The notes under the pieces were generated by a model. That model saw only the letters and a list, made by a program, of their open reading frames with translations. It ran no database searches and was not told the origin of the DNA. The translations under genes were made by a program, and so were the position numbers. From positions 310,001 to 374,000 of the forward strand of contig CM074522.1 in the NCBI GenBank assembly GCA_037379345.1: DNA of 64,000 nt, given 5' to 3'. The stretch comes from Perna viridis (Eukaryota). This document shows, one piece after another, positions 3,500 to 59,920 of the stretch; the first letter of the stretch is position 1; each line of letters opens with the position of its first letter.

Positions 3500-5045
3500 C
3501 AGTATTATAAGCAAGCTTTCCATTTTCTGTATTTAGAAGATATTTGTCTATTGTTCTTTCTTTGCCACTGGGTTATATTAATAAACAGGCCATCAAGTAC
3601 GCTTTCACAATATCGATTACATACGATGTAAAAACATCATCATCTAGAGCGAAAATGTCAGTGAGTTCACATGAATCTCTGTCTCTTCGTATGATCTAAC
3701 CATGTAGCACGGTATCGATATATTCTGGTCCCACAAGAAAACTTTAGGCATATCCTTGTATCAGGTAATTTCATAAGTCTACAGAACAAACGTACAATGT
3801 TAATTTGAGTTCTTTGATATATTGGATACCATGATTCCATGAATCGGTGTTGTAAGACTTTCCCAAAGAAAAGTTCGTACAGCTCGATATTATAGTCTTT
3901 CTAAACAGTCCAAGCGTTTGATTCCCCTAACATCGGATCCGTACTCTACTATAGGAATAACAGTGGAGTCAAATATCTTTGTGTATGTATCGAAGTCCAT
4001 TCCATCCATCGCATAGTATTTTGACACCAGTGCTTCCATCGGAAACTAGTTCGTTTATTGTGACGCTATTTAACCCAAATGTTCGCGCACAATTGGTCAG
4101 AGATATCTTTATTTCGGCATTATTTCAAGAGTCATATAATCAAATTGGAAAGAGTATTTTGATTTTGCAGCTTTTCGTACTTGCATCACTTTCGTTTTGT
4201 CCGTTTTACTTTAAGTCGCCAAGTGTTAGACCACTCCCTTGCACAATAAAGATGGGATTGCAATCCATCGGCTGAGTTTGAGATCAAAACTACTATCCGC
4301 GTAAAGAAGGCAGTCTACAGAGTTTGTTCCAATGTGAATTCCTTTGTCGATGCGATGAATTTCCGATGCGAGGTCATCCGCAAACACTGCAGAAAGGGTA
4401 GGAGCTAAATTTTCAACTTGACGAACACCAGCGTCAACTGAGAACCAGTGGTCCTTTTCACAAAAAATCGTCAGTGTAAAATTAGTCGTAATTTATGATG
4501 TCATAGTAAATCAAAGTATTGTGACGTCATAACTTACGACTAATTTTACTCTTACAATTTTTTGTGAAAATGGCCACTGGTGGTTAGAGATTCATTTGAG
4601 CGTGTCACTGTCTGAATTGTTTTATACGTGCACTTGATCGCCTTGTACATAATTCAATGAATTCTATTCGATAAAAGTTAGTGAAAAAGCAGACTGTGTT
4701 CGACGGAATCGGAGGCTTCTGGAAGTCGGTAAAGCAGAGGTAAGTGTCATTGTTCGTTAGTTTTCGATTTCTGAGAATAGTACACATCCAGACACGAGCG
4801 GAGTTTGTGGAAGCCATTCTATTCCTCACTAGATCTACATAGATTATTTTCCTCGATATTCGAGTAAGCGGGAGTTCAAGACAGTATACGTTTTTGCTGT
4901 TGTCGAAGAAATCAGGATAATACGGCGATATCCTAGGGAGTCTCTATACTCCACCTTTTTAAATAATGGATGAATTATACTTTTGCACCAGTAGTCAGGA
5001 GAGGTTTCATCATTGAAACAGATGTTAAAAAGCTACAATGAAAAT
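3500..5045 (-). mobile_element. Decayed non-LTR retrotransposon reverse transcriptase (clade tentatively RTE-X/Proto2-like)
   Basis: Minus-strand motifs in order: LFNICF..PDYWCKSIIHPLFKK, EE*NGFHK, YLCFTDFQK, WFSVDAGVRQ..LAPTL..FADDL, LLYAD, KTKVM, KIFDSTVIPIVEYGSDV; many stops and frameshifts. Confidence 0.9.
4449..4576. mobile_element. 128-bp near-palindromic MITE (PIF/Harbinger-like) inserted in the LINE RT
   Basis: ~55-bp imperfect TIRs TGGTCCTTTTCACAAAAAA.../...TTTTTTGTGAAAATGGCCA, flanked by CAG and CTG. Confidence 0.85.
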
Positions 5046-5870
5046 GTATACACATGCCCGAAAAAAGAATAATACATCTTCGAAAGTAACTTAATTGTAT
5101 ACATGATGCAGATTGATCACTGATCTGTGTATGAGTGCAATAATCGTGTTTAGAAAGTAAGAAGACTAAAGTTCTGCTCGTTTTTTGTCAGCTTTTTATT
5201 TGTCAGGCATACATCACCGTGGTGAATACACAACTATTTAGCGTTCTATTTTTTTATGACGACCAGGCGGGTACAACTAAAATACTGACAATCTTTCTTT
5301 GTTGTTCGGTTATGTTAATAAACAAGCCCGTACGTCTTAATTATGACCAGGAGAGAGCTTGGGTGGCTTTTATCTTTACAGGATTAGGCGACCCGTGACA
5401 CAGATGTCGACTTGCGGTTGACATGCGGGTGTATAATAATAACCGATAATAACTGAAATATAATTTGATTTCTTTTGTCTTACGGATTTTGAAATTAAAC
5501 ATGGAGAATTTGACACAATACACAGAATAGGTGACCCTAGATGAGTTTAAGGGAGTTTTTTTCTGGTACGGACAATATTTATATAGGTTAAAAGATTTGA
5601 TTATAGCAAAAAAGATTTACAAGAGGTAACTTCAGCACAAAACCCTCATGGCTTATTAAATGAAATCTTAAAAAAAAATAAAAATACACAAATTTGTATT
5701 ATCCTCTGTACTCGCAGTGAGTGGTACACTTGTCAAGAGTAACATTCAGTGAAAAAAAAAAAAAATTTCCATTGTAGCGGAAATGGCCGAATAGTTTCGA
5801 TTAGCATTTCAACCACGCGAATTTTAACTGTGCCCACCCCCCCCCCATCTGATACCCCGGATCCGCCCCT

Positions 5871-7097
5871 GCAAATGGTCCGTTTTCAACGATTGTTTAA
5901 CAAATAAAATTTATTTGGCCGTTTCCGCCTTTTTATAAAGAGTAAAACTTCATAACACCTTAAGAGTCTTCGTACCACGAACGACACTAACACTAGCTCA
6001 TCAGCTAACCAAACCCTGTGGTTTATTTAGATGGGCGCCAAATGTAACGGGAGAGCATGATTTGACTCACGAAATTATACTCGAACGCTAGACCCCTCGG
6101 TGGCAAGCCAGCGACAAATCGATTCGGCTAAAGAATTAATCCTTTAGCCAAGTCAATTAAATGACTATTTGAATTTCACTACCTAGTACAACGCAGGTAG
6201 GCCTTCCTGTCACATAAATATACAAATTCATAACACGGAAACGATAAATCTTAAATTTATACAAATCGAAAGATAGAACATCAACAGATATGAACAATTC
6301 ACCAAAGTTTCATAAAAGTTGGTGAAAGTGTTTTGAGTTATTGTCCGAAAACTTGAAAGACCCCCTTTTTTTAAGTATAATCAAAGCACCGAAGATGCTG
6401 AAACTCGAAAGTCGCTTGGCGTACAACATGCAAGATAGGTTCCCGATGTTTGTTTTTAAGCAATGTGCATGGGCTAAGGTTTGAGAATGTTTTGGTGTTG
6501 AAACCATGTTTCCCTTGCAACCTGCAGAAAAAACAAAACAAAGATGTACACAAATATCGTGAAAATAAGATTATAGCATTTGTTTAAGTTCTTGAGATCT
6601 TAAACTTGAAAAAAGGCAGCTGATGATGTTAATTGTGACGCTTCTTGATAAAATGATTTTCATTATAATACCATTCACGGGGCATAGTTAAAATCCACCA
6701 CCATCCAAAGAGAGATAACTCCAGTTAAATTGTATTGGCTATTATTTATCTTCTTTGAAATTACTTCGCGACCAAGCGCAAAAAATAGTTTGTCGTCTCG
6801 ATTTACCAGTTCGACAATATTTAGCTGAAAATTAACACTTTTGTCATTCTTGTACTTACAATACTCGAAGCCACTGACGTGACTTCCGAGTAAAAAATGA
6901 TTACACGGAAATGATAAATCTGAAATTTATAAAAATCGAAAGGGAGCTTATGTCAATAGATATAGACAATTCACCAAAATTTCATAAAAGTAGGTGAAAT
7001 GTTTCTGAGTTATTGTCCGAAGTGTGGATGAAGGACGGACGGACGGACGGACAATGGTATACCATAATACATCCCCTTTTAGACGGGCGTATAAAAA
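5871..7097 (-). mobile_element. Helentron-associated non-autonomous element (HINE-like) with internal repeats and insertions
   Basis: (GGAC)n microsatellite followed by hairpin ...GACGGGCGTATAAAAA; internal unit duplicated (6220-6350, 6900-7020); reverse-complement match to 39483-39750. Confidence 0.75.
6043..6214 (-). mobile_element. Solo-LTR/TRIM-like 172-bp insert with a tRNA-like segment
   Basis: TGTAACGGG...CCTGTCACA termini; flanks caaa/taaa; GTTCGAGT box on the minus strand. Confidence 0.45.
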
Positions 7098-8360
7098 TAA
7101 ACAGGTTCCAGTAGTTACGTTCCTTAAAAAATTGTGAAATCTATATTTTCATTGAAGATCGAGATCGAAACAGTTTAAATCTAAGAATGTGACTTGAATT
7201 TACTTTATGTAAAAACTTCAATTAAACGAAGAGGTATTTTGATATATTGGTGAAATAAATCAAATAAACCAAATTTTTTTTTTAATTGTGTCACGTACGT
7301 CTCCATTAAGATCGTCACTTCAAACCACTTTTAGAACTGTGAAATAAAGTAGACATTTATTATATCAATATATGTTAATGTAGGATGAAACCGTTATGAG
7401 AAATGACAGAAATATTGTTTCCAAAATTTCAATCGACCAGTATTGACCACTGTGGGAATATTGACAGGGTGTCTTAAAGACCAGTAAAAATCTGGGACGA
7501 TTATAACCGCTCAAACGTTATTTTTGCTTGATTTTGCACGAAATTATATGTACATATAAAAATATTTCTCAACAAGAGGAGGTTTCTGTACTTCCATATC
7601 ACTTGGTTAAAGTACATGTACATGTATATTTTCATGGATTTACATTGTAATATATATTGCGTTTATTAAAGACATTGTTATGATTTTTCCTTGATCTTTT
7701 TTCAGTGGTTATCACTTAGAAGATTCACTAGATGTAGTGAGAAGAAACCAAACGCAAAACGGACCATTTTTGTGCTGGGACACTATTTACGCATGAAGCA
7801 AAGTCAATGATTCTCACTGGAGATCATATTTTTGAAGAAATGCTGATTTGAGTGTAAAGTGACAATAAATTTGAGGACATAAACGTACATAGCCAGGAAT
7901 ACCAAAAGCAACAGTACAAAAGAAGATCCAGAAATACATGTAATAAACAGGCAATATAGCAGACATGCAATGATTATTCTTCAAAATGACTAAGTTATTG
8001 ATCCGATAATTTAGCTTACAATTTGATAACACAAATATTTTTTTTTTTTATAAATGTGAGGTCTTCTTTGACTCAGTGCCTCAGCACTTTGATTTCCAAA
8101 AGTCATCATTTTCTAATATGACGTGCTTCAAAGCTCTTTTGACCACAGCCATGGTAAAAAATGATAAACTCATAATTGACATTTCGTGCAACTCATAGGC
8201 TACGTCTATTAAAACATATGAAGACACTAGTCCCATCAGAATCGAAATAAGTCATGGAAACTCCATTTTATAATTGTTTTACCACGGGCTATCACCCGGT
8301 ATAAAACAATGTGACATAAATGGCCAGCCCGTAGTAATTCAATGGAACATGCCAACGGTC

Positions 8361-8634
8361 ATCTTTCCTCTTTCGTCTACCCTGGACTTGACTTTTTGTG
8401 AGCAACTCGGTGGGTGTTTCTAGAAAAGCAGAGGACGCTTACCCTACCGGTGCACCTGGTCCATGCTCCCAGTTTTTAGGGGAGTCCGAGTTGCTCATTT
8501 ACTTTTGTTACTTTATATATATTATTTTAGTACTTTATGTTCTTTGTTGTGATTGTCTGTTTTGCATGTCTGATCTTTGTCCCTGAATTACATGTGATTT
8601 CCGCTAGAATCTTGGTTCCCTTGACTACTCTTTC
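8361..8634 (+). mobile_element. Penelope-like element 3' end (family A, copy 1)
   Basis: Same sequence as the 3' parts of 18313-18953, 29232-29725, 35506-36070 and 38505-38830. Confidence 0.8.
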
Positions 8635-9091
8635 TAAACAGAAGAGTCATACACAATAGACATATCCAAAGAAAGTCAACTCCAATATTGGTAAAAACAA
8701 ATACCGAGGCGTGAATGATGGGACAATTCAAAATTCTAAAACAGGAGACACAGACGATCTACATACATAATGTAGCAAATAGATATCATATAAAAACTGA
8801 AGAGAAGGAAATCAAGAAGTAACACTAAACAAATTAAAGCACTAACACTATGAACTCCCACAAAAAAACAACAAAAAAAAAAACGACACTGACATCAGGT
8901 TCTTCGGAAGGGTAAAAACGTGCCCAGATTCGTCAGTGGAACTCGTTATTTAGATGTTCTCTGTGCACCTCATTAAATATTAAACCCATGTAAATATTCT
9001 AAACAATATATTTTAAATAAACAAAAATATATTTTTTTAAATATTTTGAAACATAACCATATTACTGTCTTTTTTCAAGTTTTTAATATAT

Positions 9092-9275
9092 AAATTCCCA
9101 ACGATGTTAGAACTGTCAAATTTGCAATGCAAAGTCCAGGCGGTGTTGCCATAGATGTCACAGCGGTACGAGTTCGAGTCCCGCGGAGGGAACGACCAAG
9201 AATTTGCATTGCAAATTTGACAGTTCTAACATCGTTGGGAATTTTTCAGACCTTTCTATATATATATATATATAT
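9092..9275 (+). mobile_element. tRNA-derived SINE fragment with (TA)n tail and an inverted copy of its 3' part
   Basis: B-box GAGTTCGAGTCCC at 9170-9182; 42-bp perfect inverted repeat 9092-9133/9203-9244. Confidence 0.7.
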
Positions 9276-9689
9276 TATAAATTTATCTCCGAAAATGACT
9301 TTATTCCAGCGCATCTGAATACATGTATAATATGTAAAATGTGTATGTTTTTGTAAATGAAACATTTAGCAATGATTGGAACGTTATTGACTATGATGTT
9401 ATCAATAAGGTTTTGTAATCTATGACATATAAAAACACGTCTCTTGAAGGTAATATTTCGGATATGTCATAACCACGTTATTTGAAAAATGAATACGTGT
9501 TCCTACTGTGCATATGGATAATTCTAAAGATCAGATTTAAAAACAGTAACAACAAATACATATTTAAAATTTCTTGATCCTTTGCAAAGTAATCCCGAGA
9601 AATCCATTAATTAGACATATAGTCAACAACTGCGTTCCATACAATATTGTTTTCCACACGTCAGATTTACCTATCATGTAAATATTGAA

Positions 9690-9752
9690 TTGAAGATGTC
9701 GATAGTTTGGATAACTTAGATGTCGAGTTGTGTTTATATTTTGCCTTTAAAT
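9690..9752 (+). other. Candidate first non-coding exon of the TIMP-like gene (5' end uncertain)
   Basis: Donor aaat|GTGAGT at 9753 upstream of the micro-exon. Confidence 0.35.
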
Positions 9753-10132
9753 GTGAGTATTTTGTTATTTACTGTTCATCTGAAATCCAAATATTGTTCA
9801 TGATGTAATGAATGATAAACTCCGAGAATGTTAAGCTACGAAGGATTGTAACGAAAATTAGAGAATGTACGGTGCGCCAAACTAACATATAAATGAATCG
9901 ACTATGAACAGAGCTTTGACATTAGCAAATTGGCTTGTCACATGTATGAACACATTTAAATTCGTCGAATTTTCCGGCAATTACGTCAATCAAGTCATGG
10001 AGATGCAATTTAGCAGTAATACAATCTTATAATTATGGTAGAAATAAAGCTGTTGTAGATAATTTTGAAGGTCAATCAAATAATAACATATTTTGATATT
10101 TTGAAAACTTAACTGTAATTTTAGTTTTCCAG

Positions 10133-10156
10133 GATCTTATCAAATAACACTGAAAG
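10133..10156 (+). other. Candidate 24-nt 5'UTR micro-exon of the TIMP-like gene
   Basis: ttagttttccAG|gatcttatcaaataacactgaaag|GTAAGC; strong splice sites at both ends. Confidence 0.55.
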
Positions 10157-10806
10157 GTAAGCTTCATACTGTGGTAATACTTTATAAGAACTTTATACGT
10201 ATAGGTACATATTGAGCAGTTTAAAAAAGGAAATTAAGACATTTAGAACTACTCACCTCAATATGAGAAAATGATTTGGCGCGGTTCTTTTCATTAAAAC
10301 AAAATATTAGTAGTGAAGTACTAACAGGCAATTTTTTGTCACAGAATTAGAGCACTTGATATACAAGTAAATTTAAATACAATTGTTATAAAAAAATTGC
10401 AAAGGTGATAGAAGTTGGAAACCATAAAACAGTATTCATGTACATGTACTTTTTGTAAAATAGAGATGGAGGATAAGCAAGCTCTTCTATATACATGTAT
10501 ATGTTGCTTAATTACTATTGGTTAAACGTACATGCATATGTTTTATTATAACTTTATTGTACTTGTGGTAACAATCCTACATGTAGAATTTTTTTACCAA
10601 AATAATCAGATTCTTGTCAAGAATTGTTGATACGAGATCAATCTGGTTATAACTTTTATTTACTTATTGATACTGAATGGGAAGAAATTAATTCATGAAG
10701 ACAATAATTAACTGAAAATCAAATGCCAAAAATTATGATCAGTATTGTTCTGTTAAATATCAAGAATGATGTACTGTAGTTTGTTCTAATTTAAGTGTGA
10801 CAGAAT

Positions 10807-10939
10807 ATGCTATTAACTGGAACGTTAGCGTTGCTGGTTCTACTTATCCCAAATGCAGAGTTATGCGAGTGTGATGCGAAAGACAAAGAATGGCTGCAAG
10901 GAAAGCTTGTGCCGAAAAGTCTGTGTACAAGTCCACAGA
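10807..10939 (+). CDS. TIMP-like coding exon 1 (signal peptide + CEC...C)
   Basis: Acceptor tgacAG at 10802-10803, ATG at 10807, donor CAGA|GTAAGT at 10940. Confidence 0.88.
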
Positions 10940-13900
10940 GTAAGTGTACGCTGTAGTCTTTAGAGTAGTTCTATGTCATATAGTTCACAAAGGAAGTCTA
11001 TGAACCCGTCCATCAAGTAAGTTTATATGCTAGTCCACAGAGTAAGTCTATTTTCTTGCCGACTAAGTATTCCTGTAATGGATCCAGAAATTTATAAAAA
11101 AAAAAAAAAAAAAAAAAAAAGGTATATTTATACTGGCTATCCATAGCTCAATTTTCCCCAAATATTGTAGAGAGCCTTCCAACAAAAGGATTCCCAAACC
11201 CTGACACCCCCACTAGTATCTTCCAATGTGTCCACAGAGTATTAGCTCTACTTTACAGAGTGCATATTTTAGTCAATAGTGATCCTGTGTTCTCGTCCTT
11301 GGGTACTTAAATGTGTTGGTCCACTTATTAAATGAAGCTGTGTTCAAGTCCACTGAGTTAGTCAATGCGCTGGCTTACAGAGTAATTCTATGTTCTAGTC
11401 CACAGCATACTCTAGCCCATGGTATTGGACTATGCAAGTAAGCGGATGCTCTTGTCCATAGCGTTAGACTGTGCTCAAGTCCACAGAGTTGCCCTATACT
11501 CTAGTTAGCAGAGTAAGTCAATGTTCTTGTCCACAGAGTAAGTCTACTCCCTAGTCAATAGTCCACAAAGTAAGTCTATGCTCTAGTCCACGGAGTAAGC
11601 CATCTCTCTAGTCCATAGAGTAAGTCTTTGGTCTAGTCCGCAAAGTAAATCTATGCTCTAGTCCACGGAGTAAGCCATCTCTCTAGTCCACAGAGTAAGT
11701 CTTTGGTCTAGTCCACAGATTAAGTAAACGTTCAAGTCAACAGAAAAGTGGATGCTGTAGTCCATACAGTTAAACTATGCTATAGTCCTAGTACATGTAT
11801 TTCACACTAAACTGTTGAATTGTGTATTAGTTTAATTTTATTGATTTTCAATTATAGTAATAGAGGTTGACGTAACAGGAGTTGACGATGGTCCGGAGGA
11901 GATGTTGGACTACAAGGTACAGGTCATCAACGTGTTAAGGGTAAGCATCCGAAAACTAGGAATTCGTGTTGTTTGTCTGTCATTTTGTTAACAAAACATT
12001 ACCCAGTTTATCCGTGATTTGTAGTGATTTTGATAGTAGAGCAAGGATACTTAGTCTAGTTTCTTTATATTTTTAAAATACATATTATGGCGACATTTAT
12101 GGGGCAGAATTCTTTTATGTCGTCGGTTTATTGAGTAAAACTTATCTATCACGTCAGAAATAAGACGTGATGTCTATGACTTCATCAAAGTTTTACCATG
12201 GCTGTAGTCTCAACGCCTTTAAAGGGCGTCATGCATGTATTAGAAATGTATTATAATGTCAAATAAGCTTCTATATGATGGTAAAACATATGTGTTAAGC
12301 CTAAGTTACTATGTTAACTATTGAAATTTTATGGTAATCATCTCGATTTGATTGTTCCATATTAATTATTTTGTTAGATCAAACTTACCGGATTGACAAC
12401 TAGTCGAACTCTCCGCCTGCCGGATTTTACTTGCAATGTACATTTGCATAAAATGAAATTATTTCACTACCATGCATTGATGTTTTTTCTGTCGGCCATT
12501 TTTGGGAAACATTTTTGTACAGTACATAATATGAAATTTTAGAGATTCAGGAAAGAATCAGTTCAATTTAATTCCAAAATGAAAGTTTTTCATAACAGGA
12601 AACAGAAATTAAACAAAACAAACAAATAACCGAAATAAAATATTGTGATTATTGTGGTGTTCATTTGCATTAGTATTTCAAAATGATTGTTCTAGATTCA
12701 CATTCAGCATCTATATTCCTTTGACCTCTCAACTGCCAAAAATACCGACCTTTGGTAACAATTAAACCTACTGGAACTCTTCTATTTCAGGGTAGCTTAA
12801 ATAAGGAACAAAATAAAGGATCTGTGTTGGTTCCCCTTGCTGAACCACCGTGCTATGAGGACTTTATTATGGAGAAAGGACAAAAATATGTACTCGCCGG
12901 TATTGTTATATGTTATTGGACTATTTTTTTCCTGTCTAGTTTTCGATTTATTATATTTTTTTATTCAAAAATACAATAAAAAGTCCACAGTACAAGATAC
13001 TGTTACTGTTGATAATGAAAATTAATTACTGTAATTATCGACAGTCAAATATTGTTACTGCTATTGTTGACAATAAAAATCGTTACTCTGATTGTCGACA
13101 ACAATAATTCGTACTGCTATTGTCGATCGTATATATAGAAATACCACTCATATAAATATTGCAAATTTTATTTTGTTGTTGTGCCTGTCCCAAGTCAGAA
13201 ATTTCTGGCCTCTGTATGTCTTGTTTCGGTTTCACTCTCAGATTACTTTTATGCTGCCGGAGTATATAAGCTCAACTATTTCGTTGCACCTGTGTATAAT
13301 GTTGTTTTATGGCCAGCTGCAGCCTGCCCAATGGTATGAGAGTTTCCTCGTCGTTTGTTGAAGACCCATGGGTAGCATTGAGCTGACATTTTCCATCCTG
13401 GTGGGATTGTTGTTTCTTATATACATTCCCTTTATATTCAATGAGTAACATCTTATCAGCAGCGTTATAACCAAATACTTAGGAAGTTTTAGATTCAGAG
13501 ACAGGAAACCAAATACAGCATCGTTATATTTTTGTCGACAGTAAAAGATCGTTACTGTTTTTGTAGACAGTAAAATATTGTTATACATGTACTGTTTTTG
13601 TCGACAGTACAAGATCGTTACTGTTTTTGTAGACAGTAAAATATTGTTACTGTTTTTGTCAACAGTGAAATATTAAGTTACACGGATTGTACTCTTATTC
13701 AAACTTCAATTTTGTGTTGAAAATTATGGAAATTCATATAGTGGTTCAATTTCTTGTCATTGTACTGTCCTGTCATCAAGGTGTATCTCTAAAGAAACTC
13801 TAGATAAGTTTTATTAATTACATTTTTTTTTATTTTAAGTATTGACAATGAAATCAGTTACATGTTTTGAGTTACTGGCTGACATGTTTTTTTAATTAAA

Positions 13901-14032
13901 CTTTTTTTTCTTTTTCCTTCAGTTGACACAATTGGATCTTATATGGTTTTGAATCATTGTAATTTTGCTGCAGACGTTCGAGATTTGACAAGTATAGAGA
14001 GGACTGCGATCATTAACGGGTGCTACAAATAG
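10807..14032 (+). CDS. TIMP: Spliced gene, join(10807..10939,11858..11940,12791..12899,13923..14032): 144-aa secreted TIMP-like (NTR/TIMP N-domain only) protein
   Basis: GT-AG introns in phases 1,0,1 give a 435-nt open frame: MLLTGTLALLVLLIPNAELCECDAKDKEWLQGKLVPKSLCTSPQIIEVDVTGVDDGPEEMLDYKVQVINVLRGSLNKEQNKGSVLVPLAEPPCYEDFIMEKGQKYVLAVDTIGSYMVLNHCNFAADVRDLTSIERTAIINGCYK*. It has a hydrophobic signal peptide, CxC, six Cys (20,22,40,93,121,142) and motifs IEVDV (VIRAK-like), YKVQV, GQKYVLA, CNF..LT..ER. The symbol denotes the family, not a specific orthologue. Confidence 0.88.
10925..11790. repeat. Degenerate ~25-bp minisatellite (ctagtccacagagtaagtctatgct) overlapping the TIMP exon-1 donor
   Basis: Many tandem copies; interrupted by a polyA-containing MITE-like remnant at ~11073-11228. 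Confidence 0.85.
11858..11940 (+). CDS. TIMP-like coding exon 2
   Basis: ttttcaattatAG| ... AGG|GTAAGC; encodes IIEVDVTGVDDGPEEMLDYKVQVINVLR. Confidence 0.88.
12791..12899 (+). CDS. TIMP-like coding exon 3
   Basis: tctatttcAG| ... GCCG|GTATTG; encodes GSLN...PPCYEDFIMEKGQKYVLA (core of ORF 12752..12979). Confidence 0.85.
12995..13675. repeat. ~28-bp minisatellite (gttactgtttttgtcgacagtaaaatatt) in two blocks
   Basis: Blocks at 12995-13130 and 13520-13675. Confidence 0.75.
13165..13445 (+). mobile_element. Interspersed repeat (family B) interrupting a 28-bp minisatellite in TIMP intron 3
   Basis: 13310-13430 matches the reverse complement of 47960-48075. Confidence 0.65.
13923..14032 (+). 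CDS. TIMP-like coding exon 4 (terminal, stop TAG 14030-14032)
   Basis: Long pyrimidine tract tttttttctttttccttcAG|; encodes VDTIGSYMVLNHCNFAADVRDLTSIERTAIINGCYK*. Confidence 0.87.
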
Positions 14033-14469
14033 AGCAAGTCTGTAATCATTGACGGGTGCTAAAGATAGTGCAGGATTGTTTTATTCAAAATCTTATGACA
14101 TCTGTTTATTGTTTGTATATAAATTGTCATTGTAATGCAAAAAATATTTCACTTCATAAATAATTGACTAATTTTTTTCTTTCTTTTTTTATGTATTATC
14201 TTAATAACAAATCATAATAGAACCTATGGTAGAAAGACAATTGTTGGGTTAACACCACAGATTTTGACATGTCTTATTCATTATTTCATATATTTTAGTT
14301 GCACTTCATAGGTGTTCCCTGTAGGGGTGTGATATAGGGAATGCAATATAGGTCTAGGGTGTGATACATGTAGGGTAATCGATATAGGGTTTAAACAGTT
14401 CTTTATATCAATGACATATATTCACACTAAAATATAACTTTTTGTATATGCATTATATGTAATTGTTTA

Positions 14470-29774: not shown

Positions 29775-30910
29775 CTGGTCACAACCTTCTCTTCACTTTA
29801 TGTCATTGTATTCTTGGTCACTGCCTTCTCTTCACTTCATGTCATTATATTCATGGCCACCATGTTCTCTTTACTTTGTTGTTGTATTCTTGATCACTAC
29901 CTTCTCTTTACTTTATGTCATTGTATTCTTGGTCACCACCTTTTCTTCACTTTATGTCATTGTATTCTTGGTCACCACATTCTCTTGACTTTATGTCATT
30001 GTATTCCTGGTCACCACATTCTCTTCAATTTATATGATTGTATTCTTGGTCACCACATTCTCTTCACTTAATGTTATTGTATTCTTGGTCACCACATTCT
30101 TTTCACTTCATGTCATTGTATTCGTTGTCACCATGTTCTCTTCACTTTATGTTAATGTATTCTTGGTTACCATGTTCTTTTCACTTTATCTCATTGTATT
30201 CGTGGTCACCACATTCTCTTCACTTTATGTTATTGTATTCTTGGTCACCACATTCTTTTCACTTCATGTCATTGTATTCGTTGTCACCATGTTCTCTTCA
30301 CTTTATGTTAATGTATTCTTGGTTACCATGTTCTTTTCACTTTATCTCATTGTATTCGTGGTCACCACATTCTCTTCACTTTATGTTATTGTATTCTTGG
30401 TCACCACATTCTTTTCACTTTATCTCATTGTATTCATGGTCACCACATTCTCTTTACTTTATGTCATTGTATTCTTGGTCACCACATTCTCTTCTTTTTA
30501 TGTTATTGTATTCTTGGTCACCACATTCTTTTCACTTTATGTTATTGTATTCTTGGTCACCACATTCTTTTCACTTTATGTTATTGTATTCATTGTCACC
30601 ATGTTCTGTTCACTTCACTTTATGTTATTGTATTCTTGGTCACCACGTTCTTTTCACTTTATGTTATTGTATTCGTTGTGACCATATTTTCTTCACTTCA
30701 CTTTATGTCATTGTATTCTTGGCCACCACATTCTTTTCACTTTATGTTATTGTAGTCATTGTCACCATATTTTCTTCACTTCACTTTATGTTATTGTATT
30801 CTTGGTCACCACATTCTTTTCACTTTATGTTATTGTATTCGTTGTCACCACATTCTCTTCTATTCACTTTATGTTATTGTATTCGTGGTCACCACATTCT
30901 CTTCACTTTA
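29775..30910. repeat. 39-bp minisatellite
   Basis: ggtcaccacattctcttcactttatgttattgtattctt, ~28 copies. Confidence 0.95.
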
Positions 30911-31184
30911 TTTAATGGTACATCATAGATAACTATTTTTTTTATATAGACTACAAGTTAATTTTCAGAAACTGTTGTTCTTCAAGTATCTTATTAAACA
31001 AGAGTAAAATTGACAAATGAAGCAGCACAAATACATCAGGGAAACCAATCCCTTTTACAAAACACTTTTGTAAGAAAATTCTGTGCCCTAAACATCTCAC
31101 CAATATTTCCGCCACGTCTTTAGAGGACCACTGTTGATAGTGGTTGAAATAAGAAAGTTTTTGAAACTGGTCAGGTAGGCAACA

Positions 31185-32530
31185 TTTACTGAAACAACTA
31201 AGCCCGTACAGTGAAGTTAACTGAAACAGAACTAGCCCGTACAGTGAAGTTTACTGAAACAGAACTAGCCCGTACAGTGAAGTTTACTGAAACAGAACTA
31301 AGCCCATACAGTGAAGTTAACTGAAACAGAACTAGCCCATACAGTGAAGTTTACTGAAACAGAACTAACCCGTACAGTGAAGTGTACTGAAACAGAACTA
31401 AGCCCATACAGTGAAGTTTACTGAAACAGAACTAGCCCGTACAGTGAAGTTTACTGAAACAGAACTAGCCCGTACAGTGAAGTTAACTGAAACAGAACTA
31501 GCCCGTACAGTGAAGTTTACTGAAACAGAACTAGCCTGTACAGTGAAGTTTACTGAAACAGAACTAACCCATACAGTGTAGTTAACTGAAACAGAACTAG
31601 CCCATACAGTGAAGTTTACTGAAACAGAACTAAGCCCATACAGTGAAGTTAACTGAAACAGAACTAACCCGTACAGTGTAGTTAACTGAAACAGAACTAG
31701 CCCGTACAGTGAAGTTTACTGAAACAGAACTAACCTGTACAGTGTAGTTAACTGAAACAGAACTAGCCCGTACAGTGAAGTTTACTGAAACAGAACTAGC
31801 CCGTACAGTGAAGTTTACTGAAACAGAACTAAGCCCATACAGTGAAGTTAACTGAAACAGAACTAGCCCATACAGTGAAGTTAACTGAAACAGAACTAAC
31901 CCGTACAGTGAAGTTTACTGAAACAGAACTAACCCGTACAGTGAAGCCTTTATAGTGAAGTTAACTGAAACAGAACTAGCCTGTACAGTGAAGTTTACTG
32001 AAACAGAACTAACCCGTACAGTGTAGTTAACTGAAACAGAACTAGCCCATACAGTGAAGTTTATTGAAACAGAACTAAGCCCATACAGTGAAGTTAACTG
32101 AAACAGAACTAACCCGTACAGTGTAGTTAACTGAAACAGAACTAGCCTGTACAGTGAAGTTTACTGAAACAGAACTAACCCGTACAGTGTAGTTAACTGA
32201 AACAGAACTAGCCCGTACAGTGAAGTTTACTGAAACAGAACTAACCCGTACAGTGTAGTTAACTGAAACAGAACTAGCCTGTACAGTGAAGTTTACTGAA
32301 ACAGAACTAACCCGTACAGTGTAGTTAACTGAAACAGAACTAAGCCCATACAGTGAAGTTAACTGAAACAGAACTAGCCCATACAGTGAAGTTTACTGAA
32401 ACAGAACTAGCCCGTACAGTGAAGTTTACTGAAACAGAACTAAGCCCATACAGTGAAGTTAACTGAAACAGAACTAACCTGTACAGTGTAGTTAACTGAA
32501 ACAGAACTAACCCGTACAATGAAGTTTACT
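31185..32530. repeat. 33-bp minisatellite
   Basis: tactgaaacagaactagcccgtacagtgaagtt, ~40 copies. Confidence 0.97.
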
Positions 32531-47559: not shown

Positions 47560-47960
47560 AGGTATGGTGTATATATCACACAAGTATGTATGGTGTATAT
47601 ATCACACAAGTATGTATGGTGTATATATCACACAAGTATGAATGGTGTATATATCACACAAGTATGTATGGTGTATATATCACACAAGTATGTATGGTGT
47701 ATATATCACACAAGTATGAATGGTGTATATATCACACAAGTATGTATGGTGTATATATCACACAAGTATGTATGGTGTATATATCACACAAGTATGAATG
47801 GTGTATATATCACACAAGTATGTATGGTGTATATATCACACAAGTATGTATGGTGTGTATATCACACAAGTATGTATGGTGTGTATATCACACAAGTATG
47901 AATGGTGTGTATATAAACACAAGTATGTATGGTGAATATATCACACAAGTATGTATGGTG
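47560..47960. repeat. 26-bp minisatellite
   Basis: gtatgtatggtgtatatatcacacaa, ~15 copies. Confidence 0.96.
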
Positions 47961-48075
47961 AATATGTCAAAGGAACAGCAACTTCACCAGGATGAAAATG
48001 TCAGCCAAAGGCCACCAATTGGTCTTTATTGAACAACAAGAAAATGCCACAGGGCAGGCTGCAGCTTGCCCCATC
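47960..48075 (-). mobile_element. Family B repeat, terminal fragment
   Basis: Reverse complement of 13310-13430. Confidence 0.65.
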
Positions 48076-57087: not shown

Positions 57088-59920
57088 TACTGGACAGACA
57101 CAAAACTCCAACTGATACTGAAGAGACACTAAATTCCAACTGATACTGGACAGACGCTAAATTTCAACTGATACTGGACAGACACTTAATTTCAACTGAT
57201 AATGGACAGACACTAAATTCTAACTGATACTGAACAGACACTTAATTTCAATTGATACTGGACAGACACTTAATATCAACTGATATTGGAGAGACATTTA
57301 ATTACAACTGATACTGGACAGACACTTAAATTCAACTGATAATGGACAGACACTAAATATCAACTGGTACTGGACAGACACTTAATTTCAACTGATACTG
57401 GACAGACACTTAATTTCAGCTGATACTGGACAGACACTAAATTCTAACTGATACTGAACAGACACTTAATTTCAACTGATACTGGACAGACACTTAATAT
57501 CAACTGGTACTGGACAGACACTTAATTTCAACTGATACTGGACAGACACTTAATTTCAACTGATACTGGACAGACACTAAATTCCAACTGATATTGGAGA
57601 GACACTAAATTTCAACTGATACTGGACAGACACTTAATTTCAACTGATACTGGACAAACACTTAATTCTAACTGATACTGGACAGACACTTAATTTCAAC
57701 TGATACTGGACAGACACTAAATTTCAACTGATACAGGACAGACACCTAATTTCAACTGATACTGAACAGACACTTAATTTCAACTGATACTGGACAGACA
57801 CTTAATTTCAACTAATACTGGGCAGACATTAAATTCCAACTGATAATGGACAGACACTAAATTCTAACTAATACTGGACAGACACTAAATTTCAACTGAT
57901 ACTGGACAGACACTTAATTTCAACTGATACCGGACACACATATAATTCCAACTGATACTGGACAGATACTTAATTTCAACTGATACTAGACAGACACTAA
58001 ATTTCAACTGATACAGGACAGACACCTAATTTCAACTGATACTGGACAGACACTTAATTTCAACTGATACTGGACGGACACTTAATTTCAACTAATACTG
58101 GGCAGACATTAAATTCCAACTGATACTGGACAGACACTAAATTTCAACTGATACAGGACAGACACCTAATTTCAACTGATACTGGATGGACACTTAATTT
58201 CAACTACAACTGGACAGACACTTAGTTTCAACTAATACCGGGCAGACATTAAATTCTAACTAATACTGGACAGACACTAAATTTCAACTGATACAGGACA
58301 GACACCTAATTTCAACTGATACTGGATGGACACTTAATTTCAACTAATACTGGACAGACACTTAGTTTCAACTGATACTGGACAGACACTTAATTTCAAC
58401 TGATACTGGACGGACACTTAATTTCAACTGATACTGGACGGACACTTAATTTCAACTGATACTGGACAGACACTTAATTTTAACTGATACTGGACAGACA
58501 CTAAACTTCAACTAATAATGGACAGACACTAAATTCTAACTGATACTGGACAGACACTTAATTTCAACTGATAGTGGACAGACGCTTAATTTCAACTGAT
58601 GCTGGATGGACACTTAATTTCAGCTAATACTGGACAGACATTAAAATCCAACTGATACTGGACAGACACTAAATTTAAACTGATACTGGACACACACTAA
58701 ATTTCAACTAATACCAGACAGACATTAAATTCCAACTGATACTGGAGGGACACTAAATTCCAACTGATACTGGACAGACACTAAATTTCAACTGATACTG
58801 GACAGACATTTAATTGCAACTGATACTGGACAAACACTTAATTCTAACTGATACTGGACAGACACTTAATTTCAACTGATACTGGACAGACACCATATTC
58901 CAACTGATACTGGACAGACAAAAAATTTAATCTGATTCTGAATAGACAACTAATTTCAACTGATACTGGACAGACGTTACATTCTAATTGATACTGCACA
59001 GACACTAAATTGAACTGATACTTGACAGACACTTAATTTCAACTGATAATGGACAGACACTAAATTTCAACTGATAATGGACAGACACTAAATTTCAACT
59101 GATACTGAACAGACACTTAATTTCAACTGATACTGGACAGACCCTAAATTTCAACTGATAATGGACAGACACTAAATTCTAACTAATACTGGACAGACAC
59201 TTAGTTTCAACTGATACTGAACAGACACTTAATTTCAACTGATACCGGACACACATTAAATTCCAACTGATACTGGACAGACACTTAATTTCAACTGATA
59301 CTAGACAGACACTAAATTTCAACTAATACTGGGCAGACATTAAATTCCAACTGATACTGGATGGACACTAAATTCCAACTGATACTGGACAGACACTTAA
59401 TTTCAACTGATACAGGACAGACACATAATTTCAACTGATACTGGATGGACACTTAATTTCAACTAATACTGGACAGACACTTAGTTTCAACTGATACTGG
59501 ACGGACACTTAATTTCAACTGATACTGGACAGACATTAAATTCCAACTGATGCTGGACAGACACTTAATTTTAACTGATACTGGACAGACACTAAACTTC
59601 AACTGATAATGGACAGACACTAAATTCTAACTGATACTGGACAGACACTTAATTTCAACTGATAGTGGACAGACATTAAATTCCAACTGATACTGGACAG
59701 ACACTTAATTCCAACTGATACTGGACACACACTAAATTTCAACTAATACCAGACAGACATTAAATTCCAACTGATACTGGCGGGACATTAAATTCCAACT
59801 GTTACTGGACAGACACTAAATTTCAACTGATACTGGACAGACACTTAAATTCCAACTGATACTGGACAGACACTAAATTTCAACTGATACTGGACAGACA
59901 CTTAAATTCCAACCAATACT
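57088..59920. repeat. 28-bp minisatellite, ~100 copies
   Basis: gatactggacagacacttaatttcaact. Confidence 0.98.

Follow-up and report, generated by a model that had tools for sequence, protein, structure and literature searches.

Within the 64-kb window of Perna viridis DNA analyzed here (the whole stretch of 64,000 nt), the first coding intron of a TIMP-like gene harbors a minisatellite of 25-bp units that was very probably duplicated from the older border between the first coding exon and its intron, and that is likely neutral, since splicing from the first donor alone is observed in the RNA. We propose that a local duplication of 19 exonic and 6 intronic nucleotides would have copied the donor, and that slippage or unequal exchange would have expanded the array, with decay of the end units, insertion of an unrelated A-tailed piece and a recent duplication of a three-unit block. 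The first copy would have left the exon and the reading frame intact. The spliceosome would commit to the most upstream working donor, as experiments have shown for human F7 intron 7, keeping the downstream copies silent even where they score higher, and selection would tolerate the array in the same way as the comparable arrays that span about 2% of the donors sampled from this genome.

The host gene and its intronic array

We took advantage of RNA covering positions 4500-14400 of the window from two raw stranded read runs (19% and 24% of each) and two contig sets, representing at most 4 samples from 3 studies. RNA joints were recovered at 9752>10125, 9752>10796, 10156>10796, 10939>11858, 11940>12791 and 12899>13923, and the exons are reported in Table 1. 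As one or two 5'UTR exons precede the first coding exon, the array-bearing intron is the second or third of the transcript. The 5'UTR (9724-10795) is alternative: the exon at 10125-10156 is included or skipped, and both UTR introns are partly retained. A candidate 24-nt micro-exon (10133-10156) joined to an acceptor at 10859 was ruled out, since the RNA has the exon start at 10796 and the ATG at 10807.

Table 1. Positions of the gene, the array and its parts in the window, with the arrays sampled at kinase exon borders
Feature	Position	Strand	Description
5'UTR exon	9724..9752	+	3' end from joints 9752>10125 and 9752>10796; 9724 is the contig start, not a defined 5' end
Optional 5'UTR exon	10125..10156	+	joints 9752>10125 and 10156>10796, of which the second is given as 10150>10793 owing to a 2-nt insertion allele at 10146
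First coding exon	10796..10939	+	ATG 10807; hydrophobic leader; C-x-C 10864-10872; third Cys 10924-10926; from RNA joints, translation and paralog alignment
Array unit 1	10921..10945	+	last 19 exon nt and first 6 intron nt; authentic donor GT at 10940; 21/25 identical to majority unit; donor used by 56 reads
First coding intron	10940..11857	+	918 nt, phase 1; position common to TIMP paralogs
Five proximal decayed in-register units	10946..11072	+	15-21/25 identical to majority unit; decoy GT 11017 (9.6 bits) and 11042 (7.3 bits)
In-frame TAG	10954..10956	+	codon 50; 147 nt from ATG
Non-repeat insert interrupting the array	11073..11219		about 147 nt; A25 run at 11096-11120
Strongly decayed units	11220..11337	+	from sliding comparison with majority unit
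Distal block of clear units	11338..11799	+	holds the three-unit duplication; decoy GT 11570 (9.5 bits)
Second coding exon	11858..11940	+	joints 10939>11858 and 11940>12791
Third coding exon	12791..12899	+	RNA joints, translation
Last exon	13923..14141	+	stop codon 14030-14032; 3' end from contig
Kinase border arrays copied into the adjoining intron	donors L057, L067, L074, L086, L093; acceptors L087, L100, L104		34-68 bp, 2-5 copies

Translation from the ATG predicts a protein of 144 aa with a hydrophobic leader (signal peptide and cleavage judged by eye), a C-x-C motif and six cysteines. The stop codon falls two codons past the sixth cysteine, in the last exon, leaving the protein without the C-terminal TIMP domain. 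The residue preceding Cys1 is a leucine, which makes the mature N-terminus uncertain. Models of paralogs were built from the eight PF00965 (TIMP) matches in the genome; three are complete (four exons), one is without its first exon and one further exon was placed by eye. A profile of four TIMP paralogs scored the spliced protein at 27.2 bits with all six cysteines aligned, against a maximum of 7.0 among shuffles (2000 made, 1869 scored). The locus itself is absent among the eight PF00965 matches, and a Pfam search with its four exons singly matched none (0/4). Judged from its sequence, the gene is predicted to encode a single-domain TIMP-like protein, which may inhibit metalloproteinases.

The accessible text of PMC10755359 describes expanded TIMP genes in pteriomorph bivalves, together with divergent 'pseudo TIMP' genes. 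Like the TIMP genes described there, the window gene has a C-x-C start, six aligned NTR-domain cysteines and three common intron positions. Unlike them, as far as that text describes them, it ends after the sixth cysteine, has an 8-residue longer loop and shows no exon-wise match to the Pfam TIMP model. The loop in question, between Cys2 and Cys3 (within 10864-10926), counts 17 residues vs 9 in the paralogs, a difference of 8 residues or 24 nt. Searches for homologues returned little, and these blanks speak for neither absence nor novelty: none at E <= 1 for the first coding exon among longer proteins, only itself for the second exon in the genome, and no usable match in the Atlas homologue search. 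The sole match of the third exon among representatives, P0001, is a repetitive response-regulator-like protein and was judged spurious. An orthologue to date the array was not found in these searches. Two tandem TIMP genes are located at 19.46-19.48 Mb of G000:C1, the second of which carries a 21/43-bp array whose end lies about 20 nt upstream of that gene's second coding exon.

Exact copies of CCACAGAGTAAGT are found at 10933 (the junction), 11035, 11531 and 11688, confirming those listed in an earlier note on this DNA, and its near-copies are borne out as well: when as many as 2 mismatches are allowed, the window contains 10 matches, with 1.9 expected, and none of 100 shuffles reached 10. 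Every one of these matches falls within 10933-11725. TRF calls only 11446-11744 as a 25-bp array (11.7 copies, 68% matches). In a sliding comparison against the majority unit, the 25-bp register runs from 10921, 19 nt inside the exon, to 11072, and about 25 head-to-tail units of 25 bp are placed over 10921-11799. The same note had taken the junction for the first unit of a ~25-bp array filling most of intron 1; the first unit indeed lies at 10921-10945 and the 25 placed units make up 601 of the 918 intron nt (65%), and the intron is to be counted as the first coding one. GT is retained in 19 of the 24 units downstream of unit 1. Decoy donors in the intron comprise 7 GTAAGT and 3 GTAAGC, with 0 extra sites of either kind in the four other introns of the gene.

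In the distal block, more than 600 nt from the donor, a 75-bp duplication of three units (11576-11650 vs 11651-11725) is 70/75 identical, which suggests a recent change in the array. No second locus carrying the array was found in a DNA search of the genome, a search that skips common words, so that uniqueness is unproven. With the same kind of search, the sole match of the insert (11073-11219) was itself; a 14-nt motif from it recurs twice elsewhere among 108 loci, each time with one mismatch and once inside the window. The insert has a donor-like site of its own at 11122 (8.1 bits).

Use of the copied donors

The joint 10939>11858 is carried by 11 + 45 = 56 reads and is the sole form in both contig sets. 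Depth is zero over 11120-11781 in 4/4 runs, hence no aligned read uses a decoy there, and the ratio of 0 vs 56 reads bounds decoy use beyond 11120 to about 5% of steady-state RNA. These figures are to be read with an alignment that needed at least 95% identity, so that a divergent array allele could be missed, with reads near the A run cut, with joints listed from 3 reads upward (15 weaker joints fall outside the listing) and with RNA prepared without an NMD block. Decoys 11017 and 11042 fall into the same depth bin as the exon and are bounded less tightly; a few reads are possible there. In the contigs, the depth of that bin is accounted for in full with no intron sequence (37,635 vs 37,625 and 30,452 vs 30,443, with a 30-nt overlap assumed for one contig), and in the raw reads its mean is 25.5 and 48 per exon base vs 21 and 44 at position 10880. 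The array intron yielded no contig, though contigs with a depth of 2.2 from intron 3 were retained, vs 239 for the spliced form. None of the 4 runs lists a stop-containing isoform (joints of at least 3 reads, NMD active), which leaves room for low-level use of the two nearest decoys. Junction usage, a check proposed with the earlier note and made here without NMD inhibition, thus came out for the 10939/10940 donor alone at the depth available.

Scored with a matrix of 214 native donors, the authentic donor reaches 7.3 bits, at the 33rd percentile; five decoys tie with it, and those at 11017 and 11570 outscore it. Donor choice appears to be decided by position, not strength. The same scores could be taken to favor regulated unproductive splicing, in which splicing at the nearest decoys, above all 11017, would in certain tissues or conditions carry the TAG into the transcript and target it for decay, so that the array tunes TIMP output. 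This was the proposal of the earlier note, with copy number acting as a dial, and its observation that the TAG is in frame and gives a premature stop from any downstream donor is correct. NMD could moreover hide decoy products, and pseudo-sites are used in human CBS and 6-16 (PMC1557585) and in ABCA7 (PMC13747324), according to the accessible text of these papers. We nevertheless regard regulated unproductive splicing as very unlikely. No decoy joint is listed against the 56 canonical reads, among joints of at least 3 reads; the decoys beyond 11120 have zero depth and the intron is without a contig, as described above. Copy number has grown distally, where the most-upstream rule would not see the change.

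For comparison within the same genome we turned to kinase genes. From 139 matches we retained 60 regions of 9,901 nt around short-open-frame matches, with long single-exon matches and near-duplicates left out. A home-made kinase profile gave 223 matches and, after two on the opposite strand were dropped, 221 exons, for which 214 donors and 220 acceptors were called by motif and not RNA-checked. An in-frame stop follows within 14 nt of 91/214 of these donors and within 77 nt of 188/214. A close in-frame stop after a donor is ordinary, which tells against a special role of the TAG in the window gene. Its position tells against such a role too: codon 50 is inside the start-proximal zone, ~21 to 100 codons depending on the gene, where mammalian NMD is often weak according to the accessible part of PMC12776119, a mammalian definition that may not hold in molluscs. 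If the weakness applies in molluscs, decoy products would be easier to see and the dial would work less well. The decoys are also kept no better than their surroundings, the two GT positions being retained in 20/24 and 21/24 units and the neighboring core in 20-23/24. Selection for or against the decoy GT gave no signal, in a comparison of low power with non-independent units. Finally, 3/3 paralogs are without an array at this donor; paralog introns were another comparison suggested in the earlier note. The dial it had proposed finds no support in these observations.

In its most specific form, splicing at the decoy 77 nt downstream, a site stronger by score than the authentic donor, would occur in some tissue or stress state and lead to the stop at codon 50, with array alleles setting the output of secreted TIMP; we consider this highly improbable. 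If regulated, allele-dependent use of decoys were true, the locus would be an invertebrate counterpart of ABCA7 and a natural splice dial made from a copied junction. As found, it is of little import, being one more donor-spanning minisatellite with normal splicing.

U1 protects nascent RNA against early cleavage. The array might matter without being spliced, its extra U1 sites serving as back-up donors or binding U1 and guarding the growing transcript against premature 3' processing in the vicinity of the A-rich insert. The contrast between ten GTAAGT or GTAAGC sites in the array intron and none extra in the other four would agree with such a role, and pseudo-sites of F7 work when the first site is mutated (PMC1557585, accessible text). 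A back-up donor, however, would include the TAG and give no protein, GT is not retained in excess, and the next intron, which has no array, is just as empty of reads (depth 0-0.07). We hold a role of the unspliced array to be very improbable as well, and a neutral array remains our preferred reading.

Age of the donor relative to the array

The first coding intron is placed 4 codons + 1 nt past the third cysteine, and is found at the same place and phase in 3/3 paralogs for which that exon was found. In the fourth, whose first exon was not found, the next exon reads open from the matching phase. The position of intron 2 (phase 0) matches in 4/4 paralogs and that of intron 3 (phase 1) in 5/5; all coding introns of the window gene (3/3) agree with the TIMP paralogs in place and phase. 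Vertebrate TIMP genes have the first and third of these intron positions as well. The paralogs sit on other chromosomes, and the 3/3 with a first coding exon have no array at this donor. Because the intron occupies the same codon and phase in TIMP paralogs from other chromosomes, the donor is older than the array, which supports the reading that the exon/intron junction seeded the array. Of the two origins considered in the earlier note, seeding by the junction is the one that stands, and supply of the donor by the array does not.

The likeness between exon and array is confined to the exon end. It begins only at 10917-10921; further upstream the exon's score is 15, where the null mean is 15.7, and the last 19 exon nt score 30 as an array unit, higher than any of 1955 random pieces. 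Of the 4 sites at which unit 1 departs from the majority unit, 3 are third codon positions, and the majority unit read in the frame of the exon keeps 5/6 residues (both weak, with small numbers). Small as these numbers are, the pattern would fit an exon constrained by its protein, with copies that drift. We also considered the longer loop as an exonised repeat unit and rejected it: exon 10885-10920 scores 15 against the array, and scores at least this high were obtained by 63% of the random pieces (1958 in all) and by 51% of the shuffles.

An array or inserted repeat that predates the donor and gave rise to both donor and exon end would account for the unit-like exon end and for the 24 nt by which the loop before the third cysteine exceeds that of the paralogs, but such an origin is exceedingly improbable, given that the intron position, the phase and the cysteine encoded by unit 1 are common to paralogs on other chromosomes, that the longer loop has no likeness to the array, that the unit was found nowhere else (in the genome search that skips common words) and that copying went from exon to intron in five kinase cases described below.

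Donor-spanning arrays in this genome and in other animals

The kinase sample contains 143 arrays with a period of at least 10. Donors spanned by such arrays number 5/214 (2.3%, 95% interval 1.0-5.4%; one with only 2.1 copies) and acceptors 3/220 (Table 1). At each of the five donors, the copied exon part encodes kinase-domain residues, which sets the direction from exon to intron. Array density alone predicts 3.1 donor-spanning arrays (P = 0.20), and in a second test at least 2 downstream near-copies were found at 4/211 donors vs 2.0% of 1046 random intron positions. An enrichment of arrays at donors was rejected on both counts. Among 15 donors in four TIMP paralogs, one has an array (37-bp x 4.1, 92% matches) whose unit is unrelated to that of the window; it lies at L015:7358-7506 (G000:C1, about 19,479,357-19,479,505) and its first unit spans the third coding donor. 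The window array exceeds all of these in size: its junction has 10 near-copies, vs at most 4 at 211 kinase donors. It is of the same kind as the sampled kinase and TIMP donor arrays despite its larger size. Extrapolated, the base rate suggests thousands of cases genome-wide, and it argues for tolerance over design.

Similar arrays have been described in other animals, and the comparisons below rest on the accessible text of the papers cited. The closest is the 37-bp VNTR of human F7 intron 7 (Borensztajn et al. 2006, PMC1557585), in which splicing takes place at the most upstream donor alone, even where pseudo-sites are stronger. Once the first site is mutated, these pseudo-sites are functional. 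As in F7, the window array begins with a unit across the exon-intron border, further copies of the donor lie downstream and the most upstream donor alone is seen in use. The F7 array is length-polymorphic and consists of 5-9 near-identical units that include 4 exon nt (PMC1557585), whereas the window array has about 25 decayed units with 19 exon nt and is interrupted by an insert. An invertebrate case with undisturbed splicing is provided by the 'mirage' minisatellites of amphioxus, found in Adh3 and the globins BflGb6 and BflGb9 (PMC3087553). These differ from the window array in phylum, genes and unit size (150-160 bp in the globins, 10-72 bp in Adh3), and length instability was shown there. 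In the window gene we found head-to-tail units, a first unit over the used border, splice signals kept downstream and splicing at the authentic site (in shallow RNA), as in junction-spanning minisatellites of the F7 IVS7 or 'mirage' type.

Other donor-spanning minisatellites, summarised in PMC1557585, occur in human CBS intron 13, interferon-inducible 6-16 intron 2, LMNB2 and PDGF intron 4. The first donor alone is used in LMNB2 and PDGF, as in the window gene. CBS and 6-16 also use the two nearest pseudo-sites, and no such use was seen in the window gene at the available depth. The ~25-bp VNTR of human ABCA7 intron 18 is the published form of the idea of a splice dial set by repeat length: its expansion is linked to aberrant splicing and disease risk, although no correlation between splicing and length could be established in the RNA cohort of that study (PMC13747324). 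The two arrays share the unit length, a position adjoining a donor and intronic donors that give premature stops; unlike in ABCA7, no aberrant product was seen in the RNA of the window gene. By analogy with CBS, 6-16 (PMC1557585) and ABCA7 (PMC13747324), a reading of neutrality calls for some caution, such arrays being apparently not always silent. On this locus, or on such arrays in bivalves, our literature search found no paper, with most subscription papers falling outside the search. Loci with donor arrays offer natural tests of the most-upstream-donor rule in an invertebrate, since stronger decoys lie downstream of a weaker site that is used.

Repeats are also frequent in the remainder of the window. 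At 47562-47969, a 26-bp array (95% matches) has a donor-like site at its start and is similar to the sequence immediately before it, but an exon could not be confirmed at this place. None of the 63 open frames of at least 70 aa in 18-64 kb made a convincing exon of another gene, so the other arrays of the window could not be placed relative to exons. Dense minisatellites extend across 26453-59909, for example 28 bp x 101 (57088-59909), 33 bp (31185-32530) and 39 bp x 29 (29776-30911). Elsewhere in the genome, the kinase search came upon about 20 near-identical single-exon matches arranged in tandem with 2-4 kb spacing at 22.86-22.92 Mb of G000:C6 (L028, L031-L048).
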